Source of the DNA: an uncultured Chitinophagaceae bacterium
GTDB taxonomy: Bacteria; Bacteroidota; Bacteroidia; Chitinophagales; LD1
Assembly (NCBI GenBank): GCA_964537475.1
Contig: CAZIBY010000001.1
Span: 476,938 to 540,937, forward strand
Direction of reading: 5' to 3'
DNA length: 64,000 nucleotides
The position numbers and the translations under genes were made by a program. Numbering within the stretch: position 1 is the first letter of the stretch; every line of letters starts with the position of its first letter. Below are positions 10,312 through 54,925 of the stretch, one piece after another. Under the pieces are notes generated by a model, which saw only the letters and a program-made list of their open reading frames with translations, was not told where the DNA came from and searched no databases.

Positions 10312-10362
10312 GCTGCGAAAGTAGAAAAGTAATCTGCTGAAATACAAAATGCGTCTGTCCGA

Positions 10363-10423
10363 CCTTCTGGAGTTGTCCCCCGGGAAGGGCCGGGGAAGAG
10401 GTTCAAGCGAGCACGCTTGAATC
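10363..10423. repeat. Composite hairpin repeat R0 (degenerate ccttctggagttgtcccccgggaagg plus ggttcaagcg-agca-cgcttgaatc)
   Basis: The first hairpin resembles the cttccggagttgtactccggaag element of 12962-12984. The second belongs to the ggttcaagcg/cgcttgaacc family also seen at 13596-13619 and 49600-49623. Confidence 0.6.
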
Positions 10424-10452
10424 TGCATGGAAAAAAAATAACCTGAATGGTT

Positions 10453-12087
10453 TTATTCTTTAACAACTACACGCGTGATGCATTGGTCCGCTGTTAGGAC
10501 TTCGAGGAAATAGCTACCCGCGGGCAAAGTATGAATATCGATCATTTTGGTATATGAGGATGCGAGGCCGTCATCCTGACTTCTATACAATATTCGTCCG
10601 CTCAGGTCGGAGAGGGTAAAGTTGGCACTATGCAATACGCTGCTCTCTAAATGAACGGAGATATCACTGGTGGCCGGGTTGGGATAAATAGAAAATTGCA
10701 AATCTCCTGCGACCTCCTGCACAGCGGTCATAACGGTGTCGCAATATTCCACCATCCAGTAGTCAACGTCTCCTCTGCATGCTTGCGATTTGTCGCCTCC
10801 AATGTCAGCCGGAGTAGATACGCCAACTGCGAAGCAATGCAAAGAAACCTCCGTAGCACCCGCAGCTATATCATTAGGAAAACTCGTGAGCGCTGTCTTA
10901 TCCCAAACACGATGCATCTGCGAATCGATCTTGAGAGACCAGACCTGGATATTGCCCAAGTTATCTTCTGTTTTATCATCGCCTTTATATGGGCCAGATA
11001 TGCCGCTGAGGATGCAGCCGCCGTCAGATGTGCCAGATATGCTACCCAATGTCTCTGCACAGTATCCCGTGCCGAATCCCCAATCCCCGAGTTTGTTGCC
11101 AGCCAGGTCTATTTTGACCACCCAATAGCCACATTGCGTTGCTGTCTTATTACCACTGACTCCCGAAATAGTGCTACCGCCGATCAGGACATTACCGTCA
11201 TGATCGCTGATCAGCCCTGCAAAGCGTACGAAATCAGTAGTGCCATATACTCTATCCCATTGTTTGTTTCCCACAGAATCTGTTTTTACCACCCATATGT
11301 TATAAGGATTTGTAAATTGTCCATGAAAATTCATCTGGGTCTTATCGAAACTTGTATCACCTAAAGCTAGTCCACCTAGTAGATAGCCGCCGTCAGAGGT
11401 TTGCAGGATGCTTGTGCAGGCTTCGTCACCTGCTGTGCCGAATCGCTTATCCCACTGCTTGCGACCATTGCTGTCTATTTTTACCATCCAGTAGTCGTCA
11501 GAGTTTTCGCTTGCGTCATGGTTATCCTGAGTTTTGTCTCCGCTTACTCCAGAACTTGAACGGCCACCTAAAACGTACCCTCCATCTTTAGTTTGCTTCA
11601 TACAGTAAAGGTCGTCGCCTCCGAGACCACCATAGCGCTTATCCCATTGCTTATTTCCATTTCTATCTACTTTCACTACCCAATAATCCCATCCGCCTCT
11701 TGACGACTCAGATTTGTCATAACCACTGTCCGAAGCACTAGAGCCTCCGATGAGAGAGCCACCATCTTTAGTTGCGCAAATTGCTGTAAGAAAATCATTA
11801 TTTGAACCGCCGAATCTTCGGTCCCAAACATACTGCCCTTGTCCATCTGACTTAACGATCCAATAATCTCCGGTATTGAATAGACAAGATTGTGTTTTAT
11901 CTCCACTGATTGGGGAGCCAGAATAGCCCGCTAAAATGAAGCCGCCGTCATTTGCCTTGACCAACGACGCCATTGGGTCATAACCTGTTCCACCGAAACG
12001 CGCATCCCATTGCCTGTGCATGGCGACCTGGGCGAAAGTCGACCCAAACGAAACCCACCAACATGCAAGGAGTAATGTTGCTTTCAT
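10453..12087 (-). CDS. T9SS C-terminal sorting-domain protein with repeated GDKTQ / DYW-VK-D-GN-QWDKR-GG units
   Basis: Signal peptide; about 7 repeats of ...SGDKTQ...DYWIVK.D..G...WD.RFGG...; C-terminal FSIYPNPATSDISVHL...LPAGSYFLEV is the type-A Por secretion tail. Confidence 0.85.
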   Translation of the reverse strand: MKATLLLACWWVSFGSTFAQVAMHRQWDARFGGTGYDPMASLVKANDGGFILAGYSGSPISGDKTQSCLFNTGDYWIVKSDGQGQYVWDRRFGGSNNDFLTAICATKDGGSLIGGSSASDSGYDKSESSRGGWDYWVVKVDRNGNKQWDKRYGGLGGDDLYCMKQTKDGGYVLGGRSSSGVSGDKTQDNHDASENSDDYWMVKIDSNGRKQWDKRFGTAGDEACTSILQTSDGGYLLGGLALGDTSFDKTQMNFHGQFTNPYNIWVVKTDSVGNKQWDRVYGTTDFVRFAGLISDHDGNVLIGGSTISGVSGNKTATQCGYWVVKIDLAGNKLGDWGFGTGYCAETLGSISGTSDGGCILSGISGPYKGDDKTEDNLGNIQVWSLKIDSQMHRVWDKTALTSFPNDIAAGATEVSLHCFAVGVSTPADIGGDKSQACRGDVDYWMVEYCDTVMTAVQEVAGDLQFSIYPNPATSDISVHLESSVLHSANFTLSDLSGRILYRSQDDGLASSYTKMIDIHTLPAGSYFLEVLTADQCITRVVVKE

Positions 12088-12111
12088 TTCTTGAAGTTAA
12101 TCATAATTTAA

Positions 12112-12155
12112 CCCGCCCTTCCGGAGTTGTATCCCGCTCTTCCGGAGTTGTACTC
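12112..12155. repeat. Hairpin-repeat element R1 (two half-copies cccgcccttccggagttgtat + cccgctcttccggagttgtactc, right arm missing)
   Basis: The 23-mer 12133-12155 is repeated exactly at 12956-12978. Homologous to 48059-48103. Confidence 0.8.
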
Positions 12156-12171
12156 GCTAAATATTATATTT

Positions 12172-12615
12172 TTATTTAAATACAAAAAAAATATTATTAA
12201 AAGCTAATAACTCGTTTTGTTCTGTACCATAGCTTAAAGTATTTTCATCCGCCTTACAAACAATTGATTTAAGAATATCGTTATCATATATATTGAAAAT
12301 ATATTCTACTTTTTCATCGTATATTAGGAATTGTGTAGAGTAATCTGTAGCATATTTCCGACATTGGGTAAAGGGTATTTGAAATTCTTCCGTCCCTACG
12401 AAACCTATTGTCTTAACAGAGTCATACAACGTATCTTTTGAAATAAATATCGACTTGAATAATTGATTGTTAGGGATAATAAAAATGTTTTGTACATTTC
12501 CAATAACATCAACATAGTTAATCTTTCCCAATAAATCAATAAATTCTTTTATAGTCTGGTTTTGTGAAGTTATTCTTCTATAGAAATATTCCATCCATAT
12601 AGTACCTTTATTCAT
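12172..12615 (-). CDS. Immunity-like small protein (hypothetical) downstream of the toxin-like ORF
   Basis: 147 aa, very AT-rich, ATG start, 10 nt downstream of the 12626 ORF stop. No recognisable domain. The call rests on context only. Confidence 0.4.
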   Translation of the reverse strand: MNKGTIWMEYFYRRITSQNQTIKEFIDLLGKINYVDVIGNVQNIFIIPNNQLFKSIFISKDTLYDSVKTIGFVGTEEFQIPFTQCRKYATDYSTQFLIYDEKVEYIFNIYDNDILKSIVCKADENTLSYGTEQNELLAFNNIFFVFK

Positions 12616-12625
12616 ACTTCTAAGA

Positions 12626-13000
12626 TTAATTAGTTGGTGCAGCTGATTTCTTTAATTCGGGATTAAAATATTGAGTTCCACCACCCTTGTACGTTTGACC
12701 GGTTGTGGCATCTTTGAAATCAGCAGCAGTACTTTTTAAAACCTTCACATCTTCTGTTAAGGTAAAAGTTTGCATGGTCCGACCCTGAGTGTTAATTCCA
12801 AGGGTTGCAGGATCAGAGCCCTCCGGCGAAAAATATTTCCCTACATTGCCATCCTCTCCAACAAATTGTACAACTTTTGTCCCTTTTTTCAATATGGTGG
12901 TTTCTACTGCTTTACTGAAATCAATACCTTTCAATTTGCTAGCTATATTTTTTTCCCCGCTCTTCCGGAGTTGTACTCCGGAAGTAGCTGCTATAGGCAC
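12626..13000 (-). CDS. Orphan toxin-domain ORF, possibly TNT-like NAD+ glycohydrolase fold; lacks an ATG start
   Basis: GKYFSPEGSDPATLGI and the C-terminal YKGGGTQYFNPE resemble my memory of the TNT family motifs (G.YFSP.G ... GGG.QY). The frame is open from 13054 through repeat R2 with only a GTG at 13000, so it may be a silent module. Confidence 0.4.
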   Translation of the reverse strand: MPIAATSGVQLRKSGEKNIASKLKGIDFSKAVETTILKKGTKVVQFVGEDGNVGKYFSPEGSDPATLGINTQGRTMQTFTLTEDVKVLKSTAADFKDATTGQTYKGGGTQYFNPELKKSAAPTN

Positions 13001-13054
13001 TTGTAGTGCCGCACGTAGCGCCTGTCTTCCCGCTCCTTCCGTATTTGTAGCACG
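12956..13054. repeat. Hairpin-repeat element R2 (cccgctcttccggagTTGTActccggaag, ggcacTTGTAgtgcc, then a degenerate half-copy)
   Basis: Perfect 9-bp stem hairpin at 12962-12984 and a 5-bp stem hairpin at 12996-13010 share the TTGTA loop. Homologous to 48081-48135. Confidence 0.8.
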
Positions 13055-13171
13055 TCACTAAAACACACTCGCCCGGTTGGCCTAGCATTTTCGAACCCTC
13101 AAGTCTGAGACTTGAATCTATCCTGATGTTCAGGTTGTGCTGCGCAAAGCTTAGAACAGCAGGGCTACTAA

Positions 13172-13567
13172 CTACTCGTCTTTTTCACTAATCTTGAAGA
13201 AAATATGGATTATAGTACATAAATAAAAGGAAACAGTTAATACAAAAGACAAAGAAGATATTTTACCATAATTTAAATTGAAAATTTTAAATATACTATT
13301 AAACAGTAGCTGATGCGTAATCCCCTGATGATCCTTTAGATATCCTAAGCATGTGTCACATAGACAACAGAATGAAACAATCAAAGCTATCAATGAAAAG
13401 CTCAACCTTTTGACATTGATACTAATTAATAAAATTACAAGTGCAAATAATCTGAGTGGCAGAATTCGCCCGAAATTAGTTTGATCTAAAATGTAATCTT
13501 TTGAAATTACTACGATAATAGTTAGTAGCAAAAAATTTAGAAGTCTGCCCAAAGTTCTGCTCTTCAT
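13172..13567 (-). CDS. Small polytopic membrane protein (hypothetical), AT-rich
   Basis: From the internal ATG, MKSRTLGRLLNFLLLTIIVVIS..., with about 4 hydrophobic helices. The upstream part of the track ORF (to 13813) overlaps a terminator and the tRNA, so it was trimmed. Confidence 0.5.
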   Translation of the reverse strand: MKSRTLGRLLNFLLLTIIVVISKDYILDQTNFGRILPLRLFALVILLISINVKRLSFSLIALIVSFCCLCDTCLGYLKDHQGITHQLLFNSIFKIFNLNYGKISSLSFVLTVSFYLCTIIHIFFKISEKDE

Positions 13568-13595
13568 ATCGCTTGCCAATGTAATTCCCCTTGCA

Positions 13596-13619
13596 GGTTC
13601 AAGCGTCCTCGCTTGAACC
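13596..13619. repeat. Hairpin ggttcaagcg-tcct-cgcttgaacc
   Basis: Perfect 10-bp stem. Same stem sequence as 10400-10423 and 49600-49623, but with a different 4-nt loop. Confidence 0.7.
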
Positions 13620-13692
13620 CCCAGTAAACAATCCGCAGTCACCAAGATAAGCATTTGCCATGCCATCAGAAGCCCGTACCTATCGCCACTGG

Positions 13693-13735
13693 CTAAAACA
13701 AATAAGCCCTTGACAGCATGTACTGTCAAGGGCTT
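13693..13735 (-). terminator. Rho-independent terminator downstream of tRNA-Cys
   Basis: 13-bp stem aagcccttgacag / ctgtcaagggctt with loop catgta, followed on the minus strand by atttgtttt. Confidence 0.7.
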
Positions 13736-13748
13736 ATCGTGATACCTG

Positions 13749-13819
13749 AGGTCGGAAGCGGATTCGAACCGCTGTAGCAGCTTTTGCAGAGCTGAGCCTA
13801 GCCACTCGGCCATCCGACC
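13749..13819 (-). tRNA. tRNA-Cys (anticodon GCA)
   Basis: Minus strand: GGTCGGA TG GCC GAGTGGCTA GGC T CAGCT CTGCAAA AGCTG CTAC AGCGG TTCGAAT CCGCT TCCGACC T. It has a 7-bp acceptor stem, a 5-bp anticodon stem, a canonical T-loop, a 4-nt variable loop and the U73 discriminator. CCA is not encoded. Confidence 0.9.
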
Positions 13820-14011
13820 TTTTTCCCCTTTCGGGGGAATGCAAATGTAGAATAAAAACCTGAATTCAAAAGGGCTATCGGATAAGATTATTGATGCATA
13901 TGATCCGCTCAGATATATGCGCCTGCTGTGGATAGGGTCTTGAAAAAATCCGCCTCCTTAACACTTCTCTTTAGTACCTTAGCGCCGCACTTTTTCAATC
14001 ACAAATCTACT

Positions 14012-46539: not shown

Positions 46540-46557
46540 AAATAATATCAACAACCT

Positions 46558-47796
46558 ATGCGATTTAGTTTAAGAACCCGCTCCAATCTTTTTAACTATG
46601 AGAGGATATCAGATTACCTCAAAAGAGATTTTGAAAGAATAAAAGCGAAGATTGACGAAGCGGAAGAAAACTATTTCTTAAAAGTTGATCAACGAGAATA
46701 TGTTGAATATATGGCCGATATAAGTTTAATCGGCTTACCAGAAATCGATTTTGATGAAGTTACTTCAGATAAATATGAGGCAGAAGTACCTGCCGAATAT
46801 TTTCCTGCTAATTACGATGTAGAAGGAGGGAAAACATATAAAAGAACGATAATTCAGTTTTTTATTCCGTGTCAAGGCAACACGGATATGTTGGTATATA
46901 TCCCTAATTCTATGTTCGCTTACACCGGACAATTTCACAAAGAAGGAAGCAATATTATTCTAGAAATTATTGTATTGGATACTAATTCTGATCAAATCAG
47001 GCAACGATACAGCAATGAATTAGTTTCACTTCAATCTTATTATGATCTTCTTATAAAAGACATTAAGAATTATAATAACGAATTAATTGAAGCAATTACT
47101 TCAGTTTTTTTAAAACGGAAAGAAAAGATTACAGTAAGTAATAAGTTTTTAGAATCGATTGGGGTACCATTAAGAAAAAACAAAAATATCCCTTCTACTT
47201 TTTCTGTGCCTAAACCTAAGTTACGTGAAAAGATAATCTTAAAACCTAGCATAAATGAAAAAACATCAGAATCAGAGCCCTCTCTTTCTGCCACCGTATA
47301 TAAGGATATATTAAAGTGTATTAATGACGTTGGCAAAAACTTCGAGCGCATGCCCAGTCTATACCAAAATAAATCCGAAGAAAACTTACGCGACCATATA
47401 TTAATGGTACTTGATCCTAATTTTCAAATGGGCAGCGCAACTGGCGAAACTTTTAATAGATCTGGCAAAACTGATATACAACTTCGATATGATAGCTCCG
47501 TAATATTTATTGCAGAGTGCAAATTTTGGAAAGGAGAAAAGTCATTTCTATTAGCCATAGACCAATTGTTAGGTTATTTAACTTGGAGAGATACAAAAGC
47601 ATCCGTAATTGTTTTTGTTCAACAAAAGGATTTCACTACAGTTTTAGGAAAAATCAAATCTACAGCATCACATCACAGCAACTACTTGAGCTTTGTATCT
47701 ATGTCAGATGAGAATTGGTTTAATTTCAAATTCCACATAAATGATGATAGAAACAGAGAAGTAAATTTGGCAGTCCAGTTATATCATCTACCTTAA
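46558..47796 (+). CDS. Hypothetical 412-aa protein with a C-terminal PD-(D/E)xK-like nuclease motif; candidate stand-alone defence or effector gene
   Basis: Strongly AT-rich (21 G+C in the first 60 nt by hand count) next to the much GC-richer smc. C-terminal ATGETFNRSGKTD(306)IQLRYDSSVIFIAE(320)CK(322)FWKG fits D-x13-E-x-K. The N-terminal 260 aa are unrecognised. Confidence 0.7.
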   Translation: MRFSLRTRSNLFNYERISDYLKRDFERIKAKIDEAEENYFLKVDQREYVEYMADISLIGLPEIDFDEVTSDKYEAEVPAEYFPANYDVEGGKTYKRTIIQFFIPCQGNTDMLVYIPNSMFAYTGQFHKEGSNIILEIIVLDTNSDQIRQRYSNELVSLQSYYDLLIKDIKNYNNELIEAITSVFLKRKEKITVSNKFLESIGVPLRKNKNIPSTFSVPKPKLREKIILKPSINEKTSESEPSLSATVYKDILKCINDVGKNFERMPSLYQNKSEENLRDHILMVLDPNFQMGSATGETFNRSGKTDIQLRYDSSVIFIAECKFWKGEKSFLLAIDQLLGYLTWRDTKASVIVFVQQKDFTTVLGKIKSTASHHSNYLSFVSMSDENWFNFKFHINDDRNREVNLAVQLYHLP

Positions 47797-47805
47797 TAGC
47801 TACCT

Positions 47806-48162
47806 ATGTTTATTACTAAAAAGACCTGCGAAATAGTTGTTAGCTTTTGCAATGAGCAAATTGTTCCAGATTCGAAGTACCATTTATCTATAAAGAAAAC
47901 TGAACATTCAATTGAGTGGTTTAAGCGATATTTTGACTTTATAAAAAACTCAACACTACAACTGCATTTAGCAGATGCGTACTATCAATCTCGGTTTGTT
48001 TATAAACTTATGGCAGGACTGAGACTAACGTCTTTTAAGCGTGGTGCTATGCTAAAGTCCTGCCCTTCCGGAGTTGCACACCCGTCCTTCCGGAGTTGCA
48101 CTCCGGAAGTAACTATTATAGGCATTTGTAATGCCGATAAACAGCCTTCACTCCTGTATTAA
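47806..48162 (+). pseudogene. Probable truncated gene: AT-rich N-terminal ~85 codons fused to read-through of repeat R3
   Basis: Composition changes abruptly at about 48055. The last ~35 codons (CPSGVAHPSFRSCTPEVTIIGICNADKQ...) translate the hairpin repeat, which is also 'translated' at 12789-13061. Confidence 0.4.
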
Positions 48163-48170
48163 TTCGCCCA
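48059..48170. repeat. Hairpin-repeat element R3 (uninterrupted form: two half-copies, cttccggagTTGCActccggaag, ggcatTTGTAatgcc, tail)
   Basis: Hairpins at 48087-48109 and 48121-48135. Homologous to R1+R2 (12112-13054) and R4 (49514-49598). 28 nt, catttgtaatgccgataaacagccttca, are identical to R4. Confidence 0.8.
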
Positions 48171-48207
48171 CTACTTCAAGCGTCCACACTAGAGCCTAAC
48201 CAGAATA

Positions 48208-48666: not shown

Positions 48667-48743
48667 ATTCTGTATTTGGGATAAATATATACAATGGATA
48701 TGTTAATTATCATCCCCGCTCTACGTAGTCCAAAATAAAAAAT

Positions 48744-48792
48744 GCTGTTCGTAGTCCGAAGGAGGGGATGTGGGTGTGCGACTACGAACCTT
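48744..48792. repeat. REP-like hairpin, left flank of the transposase (gttcgtagtc ... gactacgaac)
   Basis: 10-bp stem at 48747-48756 / 48780-48789 with a 23-nt loop. It is an inverted copy of 49391-49437. Confidence 0.8.
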
Positions 48793-48831
48793 CAATTGCA
48801 CAACTAGCCACCTTCTTGCTACCTTAGCCCC

Positions 48832-49386
48832 ATGCCAGATGGAGGATATAAAATCAGAGATCAAAACGCAGTGCACTACGTCACATTCAGCGTAGTCGAG
48901 TGGGTAGATGTATTCAGCCGGGCAGACTATAGGCATATACTGCTGGACCACATTAGAAAAAGCCAGAAGGATGGCGGCCTGTCCCTTCACGCATGGGTGC
49001 TGATGACCAACCACTTTCATGGCGTCATGTCTGCCAAGGAAGGATTCGCACTGAGCGATATACTGCGCGACATTAAAAAATACTCTGCTACCAATATCAT
49101 CAAAGCCATACAAAACCACGACAAAGAAAGCAGGCAGACATGGATGCTTGACATTTTTGCACAAGCAGGTAGTGACAATGCAAGGAATACTTCCAATCAA
49201 TTCTGGATACAGGACAATCATCCCAAGCACTGCTACAGCCGCGAGTTTACTGAGCAGAAGATCAACTATATCCATCTCAATCCTGTGAGGGCTGAGATCG
49301 TGTCGCGGCCGGAGGATTATCTATACAGCAGTGCTATCGATTATACAGGCCAGAGAGGTTTATTGGATATTGAGTTTTTGTGGTGA
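48832..49386 (+). CDS. IS200/IS605-type Y1 (HUH) transposase, REP-associated tyrosine transposase (RAYT)-like
   Basis: HUH motif in LMTNHFHGVM and the catalytic-Tyr helix KINYIHLNPVRAEIV. The single gene is flanked by inverted hairpins. Confidence 0.85.
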   Translation: MPDGGYKIRDQNAVHYVTFSVVEWVDVFSRADYRHILLDHIRKSQKDGGLSLHAWVLMTNHFHGVMSAKEGFALSDILRDIKKYSATNIIKAIQNHDKESRQTWMLDIFAQAGSDNARNTSNQFWIQDNHPKHCYSREFTEQKINYIHLNPVRAEIVSRPEDYLYSSAIDYTGQRGLLDIEFLW

Positions 49387-49390
49387 GAGT

Positions 49391-49437
49391 AGGTTCGTAG
49401 TCACCACCCGCAAGCCTGCCTTCGGACTACGAACAGC
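49391..49437. repeat. REP-like hairpin, right flank of the transposase
   Basis: ggttcgtagtc (49392-49402) / gactacgaac (49425-49434). The outer ccttcggactacgaacagc is the exact reverse complement of gctgttcgtagtccgaagg at 48744-48762. Confidence 0.8.
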
Positions 49438-49513
49438 CCCCTATGGCGCAAGAATGCAGGGTGGGCTTGCGGTCGGCGTTCTTGTGCCAAACATAGAGCG
49501 CAAATCCATCCAC

Positions 49514-49627
49514 CCCGCCCTTCGAGCTGCACTCCATAAGTCCTACTATAGACATTTGTAATGCCGATAAACAGCCTTCATTACTGTATTAGTTCCGCTG
49601 GTTCCAGCGACCGCGCTTGAACCGCGC
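49514..49627. repeat. Hairpin-repeat element R4 (degenerate first hairpin, conserved tail) plus ggttccagcg-accg-cgcttgaacc hairpin
   Basis: Aligns with 48081-48170 in direct orientation. The hairpin at 49600-49623 belongs to the ggttcaagcg family. Confidence 0.75.
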
Positions 49628-53494: not shown

Positions 53495-53972
53495 GTCTCC
53501 GGCGTCGACACCTCCCACTCCACACCTCCTTCACTGCCGCGCGATTGCATCGCGTGGCCCTCCTGTATAGCGTTTGCAACGCTACAAAGCCAATGCATCA
53601 GACAAAACCTATCTCTTATAAGTCTCCGGCGTCCTTAACTGCCGCGCGATTGCATCGCGTGGCACCCTTGTATAGCGTTTGCAACGCTACAAAGCCAATG
53701 CATCAGACAAAACCTATCTCTTATAAGTCTCCGGCGTCCTTAACTGCCGCGCGATTGCATCGCGTGGCACCCTTGTATAGCGTTTGCAACGCTACAAAGC
53801 CAATCCATCAGACAAAACCTATCTCCTATAAGTCTCCGGCGTCGACACTTCCCTTCACTGCCGCGCGATTGCATCGCGTGGCACCCCTGTATAGCGTTTG
53901 CAACGCTACAAAGCCAATCTATCAGACAAAAGCTATCTCTTATAAGTCTCCGGCGTCGACACCTCCCACTCC
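53495..53972. repeat. Tandem repeat array: four full units (127, 105, 105, 114 bp) plus a 27-nt terminal copy inside the adjacent CDS
   Basis: Units start with gtctccggcgtc at 53495, 53622, 53727, 53832 and 53946. Each carries the palindromes cgcgat-tgc-atcgcg and tagcgtt-tgc-aacgcta. The identical 27-mer gtctccggcgtcgacacctcccactcc lies at both ends. Confidence 0.9.
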
Positions 53973-54925
53973 ATATCTTCATCCAGGTCGTCAAACTCTG
54001 CCAACTCCGGATCCTCCTCCCGCAGGCGACGCTCTATCTCACGGATATCAGAGATCCCCACCTCCATCCGCAGCACCTCCGGCGTCAGTTCTATCGGATA
54101 GCGCTTTGCCTTCTTATCTACAGCAGTCGCCGCTACTTCATTTTCTGTTTCACGTATGACTTCATCTACCCTGACCGCCTCCGCATTTGAACTTTCCTCC
54201 TTGGTAGGGTTTTCGGAGTCACCGGCTGTTTGTATTAAGCCTTCCCCTTGGGGTAAGTCCCGAACCGTCGGGAGGGAGAGGTGGGCTGTTTGTATTAAGC
54301 CCACTTCTTCAGAGCGCCTGTCCGCTGCAGTGGAGTTTTCGGAGTCACCGGCCGTTTGCATTAAGCCCTCTCCTTTGGAGAGGGTTTGGGAGAGGACCGC
54401 CGTTTGCATTAAGCCCTCTCCTTCGGAGAGGTCCCGAACCGTCGGGAGGGAGAGGTCGGCTGTTTGTATTAAGCCCTCTCCTTTGGAGAGGGTTTGGGAG
54501 AGGACCGCTGTTTGTATTAAGCCTTCCCCTTGGGGTAAGTCCCGAACCGTTGGGAGGGAGAGGTGTCTATCCGCCTCCGCCAGGTAGCTCACATCCTCCT
54601 GCTGCGGCTCCCGGCCCCAGCCATAGTGATGCTGCAGCGTGAAGACACCCAGCCGCAGCGGTATCTTGCGCTGCGCCGTATTGGTATATATCCGCGCCTC
54701 AAAGTGCTGCATCAGCATCTTCATCTCATGGATGATCTCATAGTTGCGCGCCCATTTTTTGCGCCAGTAGCGCCAGATATCATCATAGTAGCCCGCGCGG
54801 GCCAGCGCCATGCCCAGGTAGAGCGTATCATCCATCATGGCAAATTTGTTGATCTTTTCGAGCGCCTTCATGGTCGCCTCGTAGGTCCATTTTTCCGCAT
54901 AGCGGTTTCCGTTTTCAGCTGACAT
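53933..54925 (-). CDS. Terminase-small-subunit-like N-terminal domain protein with a repeat-derived middle region
   Basis: The N-terminus NGNRYAEKWTYEATMKALEKI...LGMALARAGYYDDIWRYWRKKW...GVFTLQHHYGWGRE matches my recollection of Bacteroidota phage TerS-like proteins (GN.NA.KWT.E ... F.LK...GW). Residues ~120-240 are translated hairpin repeats. Confidence 0.55.
   Translation of the reverse strand: MSAENGNRYAEKWTYEATMKALEKINKFAMMDDTLYLGMALARAGYYDDIWRYWRKKWARNYEIIHEMKMLMQHFEARIYTNTAQRKIPLRLGVFTLQHHYGWGREPQQEDVSYLAEADRHLSLPTVRDLPQGEGLIQTAVLSQTLSKGEGLIQTADLSLPTVRDLSEGEGLMQTAVLSQTLSKGEGLMQTAGDSENSTAADRRSEEVGLIQTAHLSLPTVRDLPQGEGLIQTAGDSENPTKEESSNAEAVRVDEVIRETENEVAATAVDKKAKRYPIELTPEVLRMEVGISDIREIERRLREEDPELAEFDDLDEDMEWEVSTPETYKR
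54210..54565. repeat. Array of six hairpin repeat units (core g[gc]c[tc]gtttg[tc]attaagcc + hairpin) lying in frame inside the CDS
   Basis: Units contain ccctctcc-tttg-gagaggg, cctctcc-ttcg-gagagg and ccttcccc-ttg-gggtaag hairpins. The translated peptide repeats are GEGLIQTA / GEGLMQTA. Confidence 0.85.

Follow-up and report, generated by a model that had tools for sequence, protein, structure and literature searches.

The stretch of DNA analysed here, called the window, consists of 64,000 nucleotides of contig CAZIBY010000001.1 from an uncultured Chitinophagaceae bacterium. Its element of interest is an AT-rich patch of 800 bp that lies between two exact copies of a 23-bp repeat, within an array of a hairpin repeat family designated E (Table 1). 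The patch is probably (roughly 0.6) an orphan module from a polymorphic-toxin system, now decayed and situated in AT-rich DNA that was joined into a resident E array by recombination. The module would consist of the 3' three-quarters of a toxin tip of the Tse6/TNT class together with an intact immunity-type gene 10 nt downstream, and it would represent horizontally acquired AT-rich DNA in an integrase-less island of 3.4 kb on the 3' side of a tRNA-Cys gene. The AT-rich fragment would have been joined to the array at or beside its palindromic hairpin, hp1. As a whole, the patch is a fairly ordinary toxin/immunity remnant of a known kind in a tRNA-linked variable island.

The toxin open reading frame (ORF; 12626-13000), which includes the motifs KYFSPEG and GGGTQYF, had been compared in the first-pass annotation to TNT-type NAD+ glycohydrolase domains, and both family and fold searches agreed with this comparison. 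The Pfam profile Ntox46 (PF15538) matched the ORF with 34.3 bits (E 2.9e-8) over profile positions 42-150 of 157, the curated cutoff being 25 bits, and TNT (PF14021) gave a weak second match of 17 bits, which is under its cutoff. Ntox46 is the name of the toxin domain of Tse6 (PMC10763514). By sequence, the ORF also matched the Tse6 entries of PDB (4ZV0/4ZV4) at E 1e-4. The alignment-based AlphaFold2 (AF2) model had a mean predicted local distance difference test score (pLDDT) of 82.5, with values over 90 from residue 40 on. When this model was searched with Foldseek, Tse6 was found at E 1e-8 (4ZV4/4ZV0), followed by fungal NADases, Tne2 and Rhs1-CT. By family and modelled fold, the ORF is thus a Tse6/TNT-class domain, for which NAD(P)+ glycohydrolase activity is predicted.

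The domain is cut at its 5' end. An exhaustive HMMER search produced 1319 family representatives, in which the domain is nearly always C-terminal in proteins of 200-4500 aa. The nearest relatives, 56-62% identical, have the motif of the Rhs-core end approximately 100 residues upstream of the domain, and this motif is absent upstream of the remnant. All 15 relatives included in the alignment have the helix ERxxLAxxFYxKF directly before the segment GE.NI..KL.GIDF. The homology of the window toxin with the family starts at G-EKNIASKLKGIDF, the codon of the G being the first triplet of the right 23-mer, and the helix is replaced by repeat-encoded residues modelled with a pLDDT of ~45. Since homology sets in at this repeat's inner edge, the cargo ends on the right at a breakpoint inside a conserved domain. 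The 37 codons upstream of the homologous part are translation of the E repeat, and no protein homologs were found for them. In the part of the toxin that was kept, all 15 invariant and 11 near-invariant columns are intact, which would mean either that the cut is recent or that the fragment is still constrained.

The toxin frame has no ATG, and the GTG at 13000 is its only start, although the frame runs open through the repeat to 13054; the earlier description of a silent orphan without a start codon was therefore accurate. Since the remnant has no start codon, no trafficking or delivery domain and no first helix, it is judged from its sequence not to be workable as a delivered toxin. The Bacteroidetes -7 motif (TAnnTTTG) was absent from the minus strand at 12616-13170, which is weak evidence, and an own promoter is not evident there. 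Transcription of the module may be read-through, since no -7 motif is present between the toxin/immunity ORFs and ORF131, the membrane-protein ORF of a second AT-rich patch. A Bacteroidetes-type -7 motif, TACATTTG, is located at 13842-13849 on the minus strand, just upstream of the tRNA-Cys.

The first-pass annotation had likened the pair of ORFs to the orphan modules of polymorphic toxin loci. The likeness holds for the toxin tip, which has neither delivery part nor start and is followed by an ORF on the same strand, but not for the surroundings, as there is no main toxin gene nearby and no coding handle. The neighbouring genes are those of a protein sorted by the type IX secretion system (T9SS) and of the tRNA-Cys. 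No full-length toxin gene was found among the large ORFs of the window that were checked, which are not all of its ORFs and are of the PKD, SprB or T9SS kind and not Rhs or PAAR. Also no conserved pre-toxin coding 'handle' was found upstream of the remnant.

The second ORF of the patch encodes 147 aa, and a frame of this length would presumably be unlikely to arise by chance in DNA of 31% GC. Its earlier reading as an immunity-type ORF holds in that it is small, unrecognised and in the usual position after the toxin, its function being deduced from that position only. It had no match in Pfam, NCBIfam or PADLOC and no tblastn match in plasmids. The 90%-identity cluster of the protein includes the source strain only, and its single-sequence AF2 model was unusable (pLDDT 41). 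The downstream neighbour of one toxin homolog (P0002) is a Tsi6-family protein, to which the 147-aa protein is unrelated; it is also unrelated to the downstream neighbour of another homolog (P0001). Such diversity is usual in immunity genes. The candidate immunity gene is probably the part of the module that was kept by selection, as an orphan immunity against the NADase effectors of competitors. A '140-aa alternative' immunity protein was also considered, and exact-protein look-ups identified it as the same cassette of the same strain with a different start call.

The 23-mer CCCGCTCTTCCGGAGTTGTACTC is present in two exact copies, which diverge at once outside the repeat (preceding base t vs c, following base g vs c), as had been noted before; the number of chance matches expected from dinucleotide shuffles was 0. 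The shared identity exceeds the 21-nt E unit by two bases only (TC). The left (12133) and right (12956) copies are alone among the eight known E units in sharing a C-to-T variant, and because of this private variant they are considered sister copies instead of random members of the family. Also the account of the DNA between them was correct: it is AT-rich (31% GC) and filled by the two co-directional minus-strand ORFs, 10 nt apart, with 16 nt of flank outside the ORFs on the left and 0 nt on the right. When 12156-12978 was removed and 12112-12155 was joined to 12979-13011, the product was collinear with 48059-48136, sharing 66 of the 78 positions (85%) with one 1-nt gap, and the uninterrupted architecture at 48059 was thereby rebuilt as the first-pass annotation had proposed. 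The accompanying claim of a cassette inserted in a hairpin was upheld for the cargo splitting an array of which the uninterrupted form is seen at 48059, but not for its right end, which is the breakpoint inside the toxin domain.

The arrangement of repeats and cargo is not an assembly artefact, since three independent metagenome assemblies of Logan (SRR24111731/34/37) agree with the window: two of them (L002 and L003) include both repeat copies, and the third (L001) includes the left copy and the cargo up to the toxin ORF. According to the exact-protein look-ups of the immunity ORF and of the T9SS protein and to the 90%-identity cluster, the cassette is known only from the source strain.

The patch is located inside a hypervariable island 3' of the tRNA-Cys, a context that the first-pass annotation had missed. 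In the blastn comparison with the relative L132, the match ended at 10337 and resumed at 13696, with 76 nt in L132 instead of the island. The island includes the T9SS-protein gene, repeat units, the toxin/immunity patch and the second AT-rich patch. The relatives were fetched through the adjoining aminotransferase (87-99% protein identity), and the side of the tRNA and the aminotransferase was kept in all of them, the opposite side differing in each (eight contexts in eight relatives). The 3' side of the tRNA-Cys was occupied by a sigma54 response-regulator gene ~75 nt off in L132 (aminotransferase 97% identical), by the his operon in L131 (99%), by restriction-modification, caspase and resolvase genes in L127 (98%), by genes of an extracytoplasmic function (ECF) sigma factor and a cupin in L128 (98%), by P450 and helix-turn-helix (HTH) genes in L135 (99%), and by a 2008-aa beta-helix protein in L139 (96%). 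In L137 (87%), a tyrosine integrase gene (Phage_integrase) lies ~140 nt from the tRNA and is followed by T9SS-sorted proteins, 56% and 49% identical to the product of 10453-12087 in the window.

The homology with the relatives ended between 13593 and 13790. It stopped at the 3' end of the tRNA in L127, L128 and L130, and inside the tRNA where the contigs L129, L133, L134 and L136 break; several metagenome contigs break at the tRNA-Cys. No integrase was found in the window, nor any tRNA-Cys fragment of at least 12 nt that would mark the far end of the island, and the 23-bp repeat is unrelated to the tRNA. The earlier statement that the cassette has no recombinase was correct, and no recombinase genes were found between 8983 and 16220, the rest of the window not being exhaustively scanned. 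A homolog search aimed at the empty site did not find any close ortholog of the T9SS protein beyond the source strain.

In L131, hp2 with the E tail and hp3 adjoin the tRNA-Cys at the orthologous position, ~75 nt apart, and neither of the AT-rich patches is present. Since L131 has E modules without either patch, the E backbone looks resident and the AT-rich DNA incoming. The region 12992-13075, which is orthologous to the DNA adjoining the tRNA-Cys in L131, is also common to the E copies of the putative relative APMI01. The breakpoints between strains cluster at the module edges (12155/6, 12955/6, 12991/2, ~13080 and ~13560-13590).

E is a low-copy, modular and strain-polymorphic hairpin family, in which one, two or three units of 21-22 nt, all with an ascending arm and a loop, stand in tandem and are followed by hp1, hp2, a tail and often hp3. 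The window includes four related and two degenerate units, and the JGI metagenomes yielded three exact hairpins only, all in APMI01 (APMI01000753/APMI01001172), so the 23-mer is not the high-copy core that would have counted against the interpretation of the first-pass annotation. All three E copies of APMI01 are single-unit, and the repeat family F, which follows the E tail in the window, is present twice in APMI01. The copy E3 and the E part of E4, flanking the region of the REP-associated tyrosine transposase (RAYT), are absent from the relative L138 (GCA_018267385.1). The single-stranded DNA (ssDNA) fold of hp1 had a z-score of -3.6. The Rfam scan of 12050-13700 gave no matches, and the hairpin and the E unit were not found in viral contigs. 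The 15-mer CTTCCGGAGTTGYAC gave 120 chance matches in genome contigs, in unrelated phyla and none reaching into the element, the pattern being too short. The possibility that hp1 is an intrinsic terminator was rejected, as no T-run follows the hairpin on either strand.

Short-homology or illegitimate recombination could have joined the AT-rich fragment to the array, and three routes are conceivable. A resident unit may have recombined with one carried on the incoming fragment, the fragment may have entered between tandem units that had just been duplicated (periods of 21 and 22 nt are seen elsewhere), or the insertion may have been a truly targeted one, staggered or of the att type. The data fit all three routes alike and do not discriminate among them. 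The toxin gene may have been cut by the same event or by an earlier one at the donor locus.

Some observations weigh against the interpretation of a decayed module joined in by recombination. The exact 23-bp duplication and the clean rebuilding of an E3-like copy would also be expected from targeted insertion, and a cargo trimmed this tightly to its ORFs is unusual for random illegitimate joins. The 64 kb include only two regions of ~30% GC, namely 12156-13590, which the E/F block divides, and 46540-48058; both adjoin E units, which hints at a non-random link. Furthermore, the toxin core shows no decay and its expression from the GTG at 13000 may be conceivable. The 147-aa gene is most likely the cognate immunity gene, but this is inferred from its position only.

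These observations bear on an alternative in which the patch is a discrete mobile cassette, inserted site-specifically into hp1 by a trans-acting enzyme, which would be either a tyrosine recombinase of the att type or one that targets hairpins or ssDNA, and leaving an attL/attR-like duplication, the E arrays then being docking sites for AT-rich cassettes of conflict genes. This is considered unlikely, although it would account for the exact repeat with its private variant and for the 85% identity of the rebuilt site with E3, and the perfect 9-5-9 palindrome of hp1 with its tandem half-sites is like the core and arm sites of a recombinase. The second AT-rich patch, which has a single ORF and, compared with L131, interrupts the same E backbone, also suits it, as do the AT-rich region with a PDC-S54 candidate ending directly at E3, the presence or absence of E copies between strains, and the tandem 21-22-nt units, which could be footprints of earlier events. 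However, the right end of the cargo is inside a conserved protein domain, and the cargo itself lacks any recombination site or hairpin, either attC-like or subterminal (left-junction fold z -0.64). The AT-rich region at E3 is bordered by an E unit on one side only, E is a low-copy family, and no recombinase is adjacent. The RAYT, the only HUH enzyme of the window, is 36 kb from the patch and flanked by its own inverted REP hairpins, GTTCGTAGTC-N22-GACTACGAAC (48747-48789 and 49393-49434), which are confined to its surroundings within the window and are distinct from E. The empty or alternatively filled sites that the first-pass annotation had called for were not found, as limited scans of assemblies, JGI metagenomes, relatives and viral contigs revealed no empty site, no other cargo at hp1 and no excised circle. 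HUH insertion of the IS200/IS605 type leaves the target unduplicated, and 23 bp is an atypical length for a duplication made by a transposase. An integron or IS200/IS605 process is thus disfavoured, because the cargo is hairpin-less, its boundary is intradomain, a duplication is present and the local RAYT has other REPs. Integron- or HUH-type insertion into the hairpin is unsupported but conceivable, and the attL/attR-like or ssDNA insertion suggested in the first-pass annotation is unproven.

The polarity of the event could also have been the reverse, with an AT-rich island of membrane, full toxin and immunity genes existing first and the E+F block (12956-13170) entering it as an element like a miniature inverted-repeat transposable element (MITE) or a REP, beheading the toxin; the left units would then be a separate E copy. 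The block has a GC content of 53% with DNA of ~30% GC on both sides, single-unit E copies are standard in APMI01 (3/3 copies) and in E4, E4 carries its E part as an insertion when compared with L138, and a RAYT is present in the window. This sequence of events is nevertheless quite improbable, as hp2, the tail and hp3 are orthologous by the tRNA-Cys in L131 without either AT-rich patch, and as the missing toxin helix (ERxxLAxxFYxKF) was not found in any of the three translated frames to the right of the E+F block. It also leaves unexplained why the left copy includes only 3 nt of the descending arm and why the two copies share a private variant. Least credible, and held with very little confidence, is the explanation that there is no causal link and that the 23-mers are two members of an intergenic repeat family flanking a gene pair by chance. 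REP elements and bacterial interspersed mosaic elements (BIME) often flank gene pairs, E and F are generic intergenic repeats that separate small paralogous genes also in APMI01, and the identity beyond the 21-nt unit comprises only the bases TC. On the other hand, the left copy is incomplete and ends inside the hairpin, the shared variant is seen in no other unit, and the right copy adjoins a truncated coding sequence and not an intergenic spacer. The recombinational joining of a decayed toxin module into a resident array is the preferred reading.

A broader and doubtful proposal is that the E arrays are docking sites of an undescribed, trans-acting system of cassette capture in environmental Bacteroidota. 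In such a system AT-rich blocks of conflict genes would be spliced in or beside the 9-5-9 palindrome, duplicating one unit of ~21-23 nt, and earlier events would have left the tandem half-units as their footprints, with a logic like that of integrons or of the recombinase-associated acquired interbacterial defence clusters (rAID) but without an adjacent integrase. Three blocks of the window would fit: the toxin-remnant/immunity pair, the small membrane protein and the PDC-S54 candidate. The last of these is in the region 46540-48058, which ends directly at E3, is absent from GCA_018267385.1 and has an E unit at one end only. If the hairpin repeat did act as a capture site, strain-variable cargo of toxin, immunity and defence genes could be found in Bacteroidota by a simple sequence signature, and a new kind of recombination activity would be indicated; the present data do not establish capture. 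Irrespective of this, the patch is a further example of an orphan NADase-toxin remnant accompanied by a probable immunity gene, from an uncultured environmental member of the Bacteroidota, with a well documented tRNA-Cys hotspot around it and a candidate immunity protein without known relatives.

Among known systems, the toxin part is closest to Tse6 (a P. aeruginosa effector of type VI secretion, T6SS), TNT and Tne with their partners Tsi6, IFT and Tni, sharing the domain family, the predicted fold and the conserved core columns, and also in the window a small gene follows on the same strand. Unlike in these, a delivery part of the PAAR, transmembrane or Rhs kind is missing from the window toxin, as are a start codon and the first helix, and the candidate immunity protein is unrelated to Tsi6. 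The module resembles the orphan toxin-tip/immunity modules of Rhs and contact-dependent inhibition (CDI) loci and of the acquired interbacterial defence (AID) and rAID-1 clusters in having a 5'-truncated toxin with an intact immunity-type gene, skewed GC, boundary repeats and a location in variable DNA. It differs from them in being single and not an array, in not following a full-length toxin gene and in having no coding handle. As defined by Ross et al. (bioRxiv 10.1101/471110), the rAID-1 clusters comprise a XerD-family recombinase followed by arrayed orphan immunity genes, with GC that is skewed and intergenic sequences that are repetitive. The window has skewed GC and repeat-bounded ORF blocks, has no adjacent XerD-type recombinase, includes one toxin/immunity module and one unrelated membrane ORF, and belongs to an environmental uncultured member of the Bacteroidota and not to gut Bacteroidales.

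E also resembles the elements of the REP/BIME and REPIN type, which are associated with RAYT transposases (PMC3116915, PMC3337134): it forms short, strain-polymorphic intergenic hairpin mosaics with breakpoints at hairpin edges, and a RAYT is present in the same window. In contrast to them, it is low-copy, is not the REP flanking the RAYT and has tandem half-units, and the DNA inserted is not an insertion sequence (IS). The similarity to tRNA-linked islands is in the DNA adjoining the 3' side of the tRNA-Cys, the content differing between relatives and the tyrosine integrase present there in L137, the differences being that an integrase and a repeated tRNA 3' end are both missing from the window and that the 23-bp repeat is tRNA-unrelated. 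Integrase-less derivatives of tRNA-linked islands are known as cis-mobilizable elements (CIME), and REPs are known to serve as targets of IS insertion (IS1397, IS110-family). Integron cassettes are likewise promoter-less, tightly trimmed ORF blocks bounded by hairpin-forming repeats, but here there is no attC at the 3' end of the cargo, where the AT-rich DNA extends only 16 nt past the immunity stop, no IntI, attI or Pc is near, and the boundary is intradomain. Unlike in IS200/IS605 or RAYT-REP elements, the cargo is not bounded by cognate hairpins of a Y1/HUH transposase. The patch thus lacks defining features of an integron cassette, of an HUH element and of the classical orphan modules that follow a main toxin gene.

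Table 1. Features of the window in and around the toxin/immunity patch and at the other E copies.
Feature	Position	Strand	Remarks
Strain-specific island	10338-13695		3.4 kb, between sigma54 response-regulator gene and tRNA-Cys terminator
Degenerate E unit with hp3	10358-10430	+	GGTTCAAGCG-N4-CGCTTGAA; inverted copy of 13589-13619
T9SS-sorted secreted protein gene	10453-12087	-	Pfam Por_Secre_tail
E unit U1	12112-12132	+	Half copy: ascending arm and loop
E unit U2, left 23-mer copy	12133-12155	+	Stops 3 nt into descending arm
AT-rich cargo between the 23-mers	12156-12955		800 bp; 31% GC vs ~50-55% in flanks
Candidate immunity ORF	12172-12615	-	Intact, 147 aa; ATG 10 nt after toxin stop; end 16 nt from left repeat
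Ntox46/Tse6-like NADase domain, 5'-truncated	12626-12958	-	Homologous part; frame open to 13054
E unit U3, right 23-mer copy	12956-12978	+	
Hairpin hp1	12962-12984	+	CTTCCGGAG-TTGTA-CTCCGGAAG; perfect 9-5-9; family form with TTGYA loop
Hairpin hp2 and E tail	12992-13075	+	GGCAC-TTGTA-GTGCC; family form GGCAY-TTGTA-RTGCC
Repeat family F	13084-13165	-	Core GATTCAAGTCTCAGACTTGAGG
ORF131	13172-13567	-	131-aa multi-pass membrane protein; fills second AT-rich patch (29% GC) between F and hp3
Hairpin module hp3	13589-13619	+	Adjoins tRNA-Cys; present in L131 too
tRNA-Cys(GCA)	13748-13819	-	3' side variable between strains
412-aa protein	46558-47796	+	PADLOC PDC-S54 candidate defence family, E 1.6e-132
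E3, uninterrupted reference copy	48059-48200	+	Two units, hp1, hp2, tail, degenerate hp3
RAYT (HUH/Y1)	48832-49386	+	Pfam Y1_Tnp; NCBIfam REP_Tyr_transpos 96.8 bits vs cutoff 80
E4	49510-49623	+	One degenerate unit, hp2, tail, hp3

The patch of ORF131 is absent from L131. No family match was found for this ORF, and it could be another immunity-type gene. The tripeptide SFY in ORF131 was considered as a candidate for the missing toxin helix, but its distance was wrong and the resemblance was judged to be due to chance.

The two hp3 modules of the island, together with their flanks, form a 31-nt inverted repeat (90% complementary; 10400-10430/13589-13619), located 62 and 76 nt inside the island ends. 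It is probably no transposon end, because the right copy is present also in L131, without the island. In the APMI01 contig L126 (APMI01001172.1, 170-1900), E elements precede a tandem pair of paralogous genes, each for a small membrane protein, and F is present in two copies after the pair, and in contig L125 a gene of the same type is cut after the signal peptide by AT-rich DNA. The region 48709-49440 of the window represents a classical REP/RAYT arrangement in uncultured Bacteroidota, and a relative has two tandem left REPs. Tandem repeats are also found at 53528-53974 (four copies of 105-114 nt) and 54175-54564 (108 nt), with 28-nt sub-repeats, near an ORF (53933-54925) without a Pfam match.

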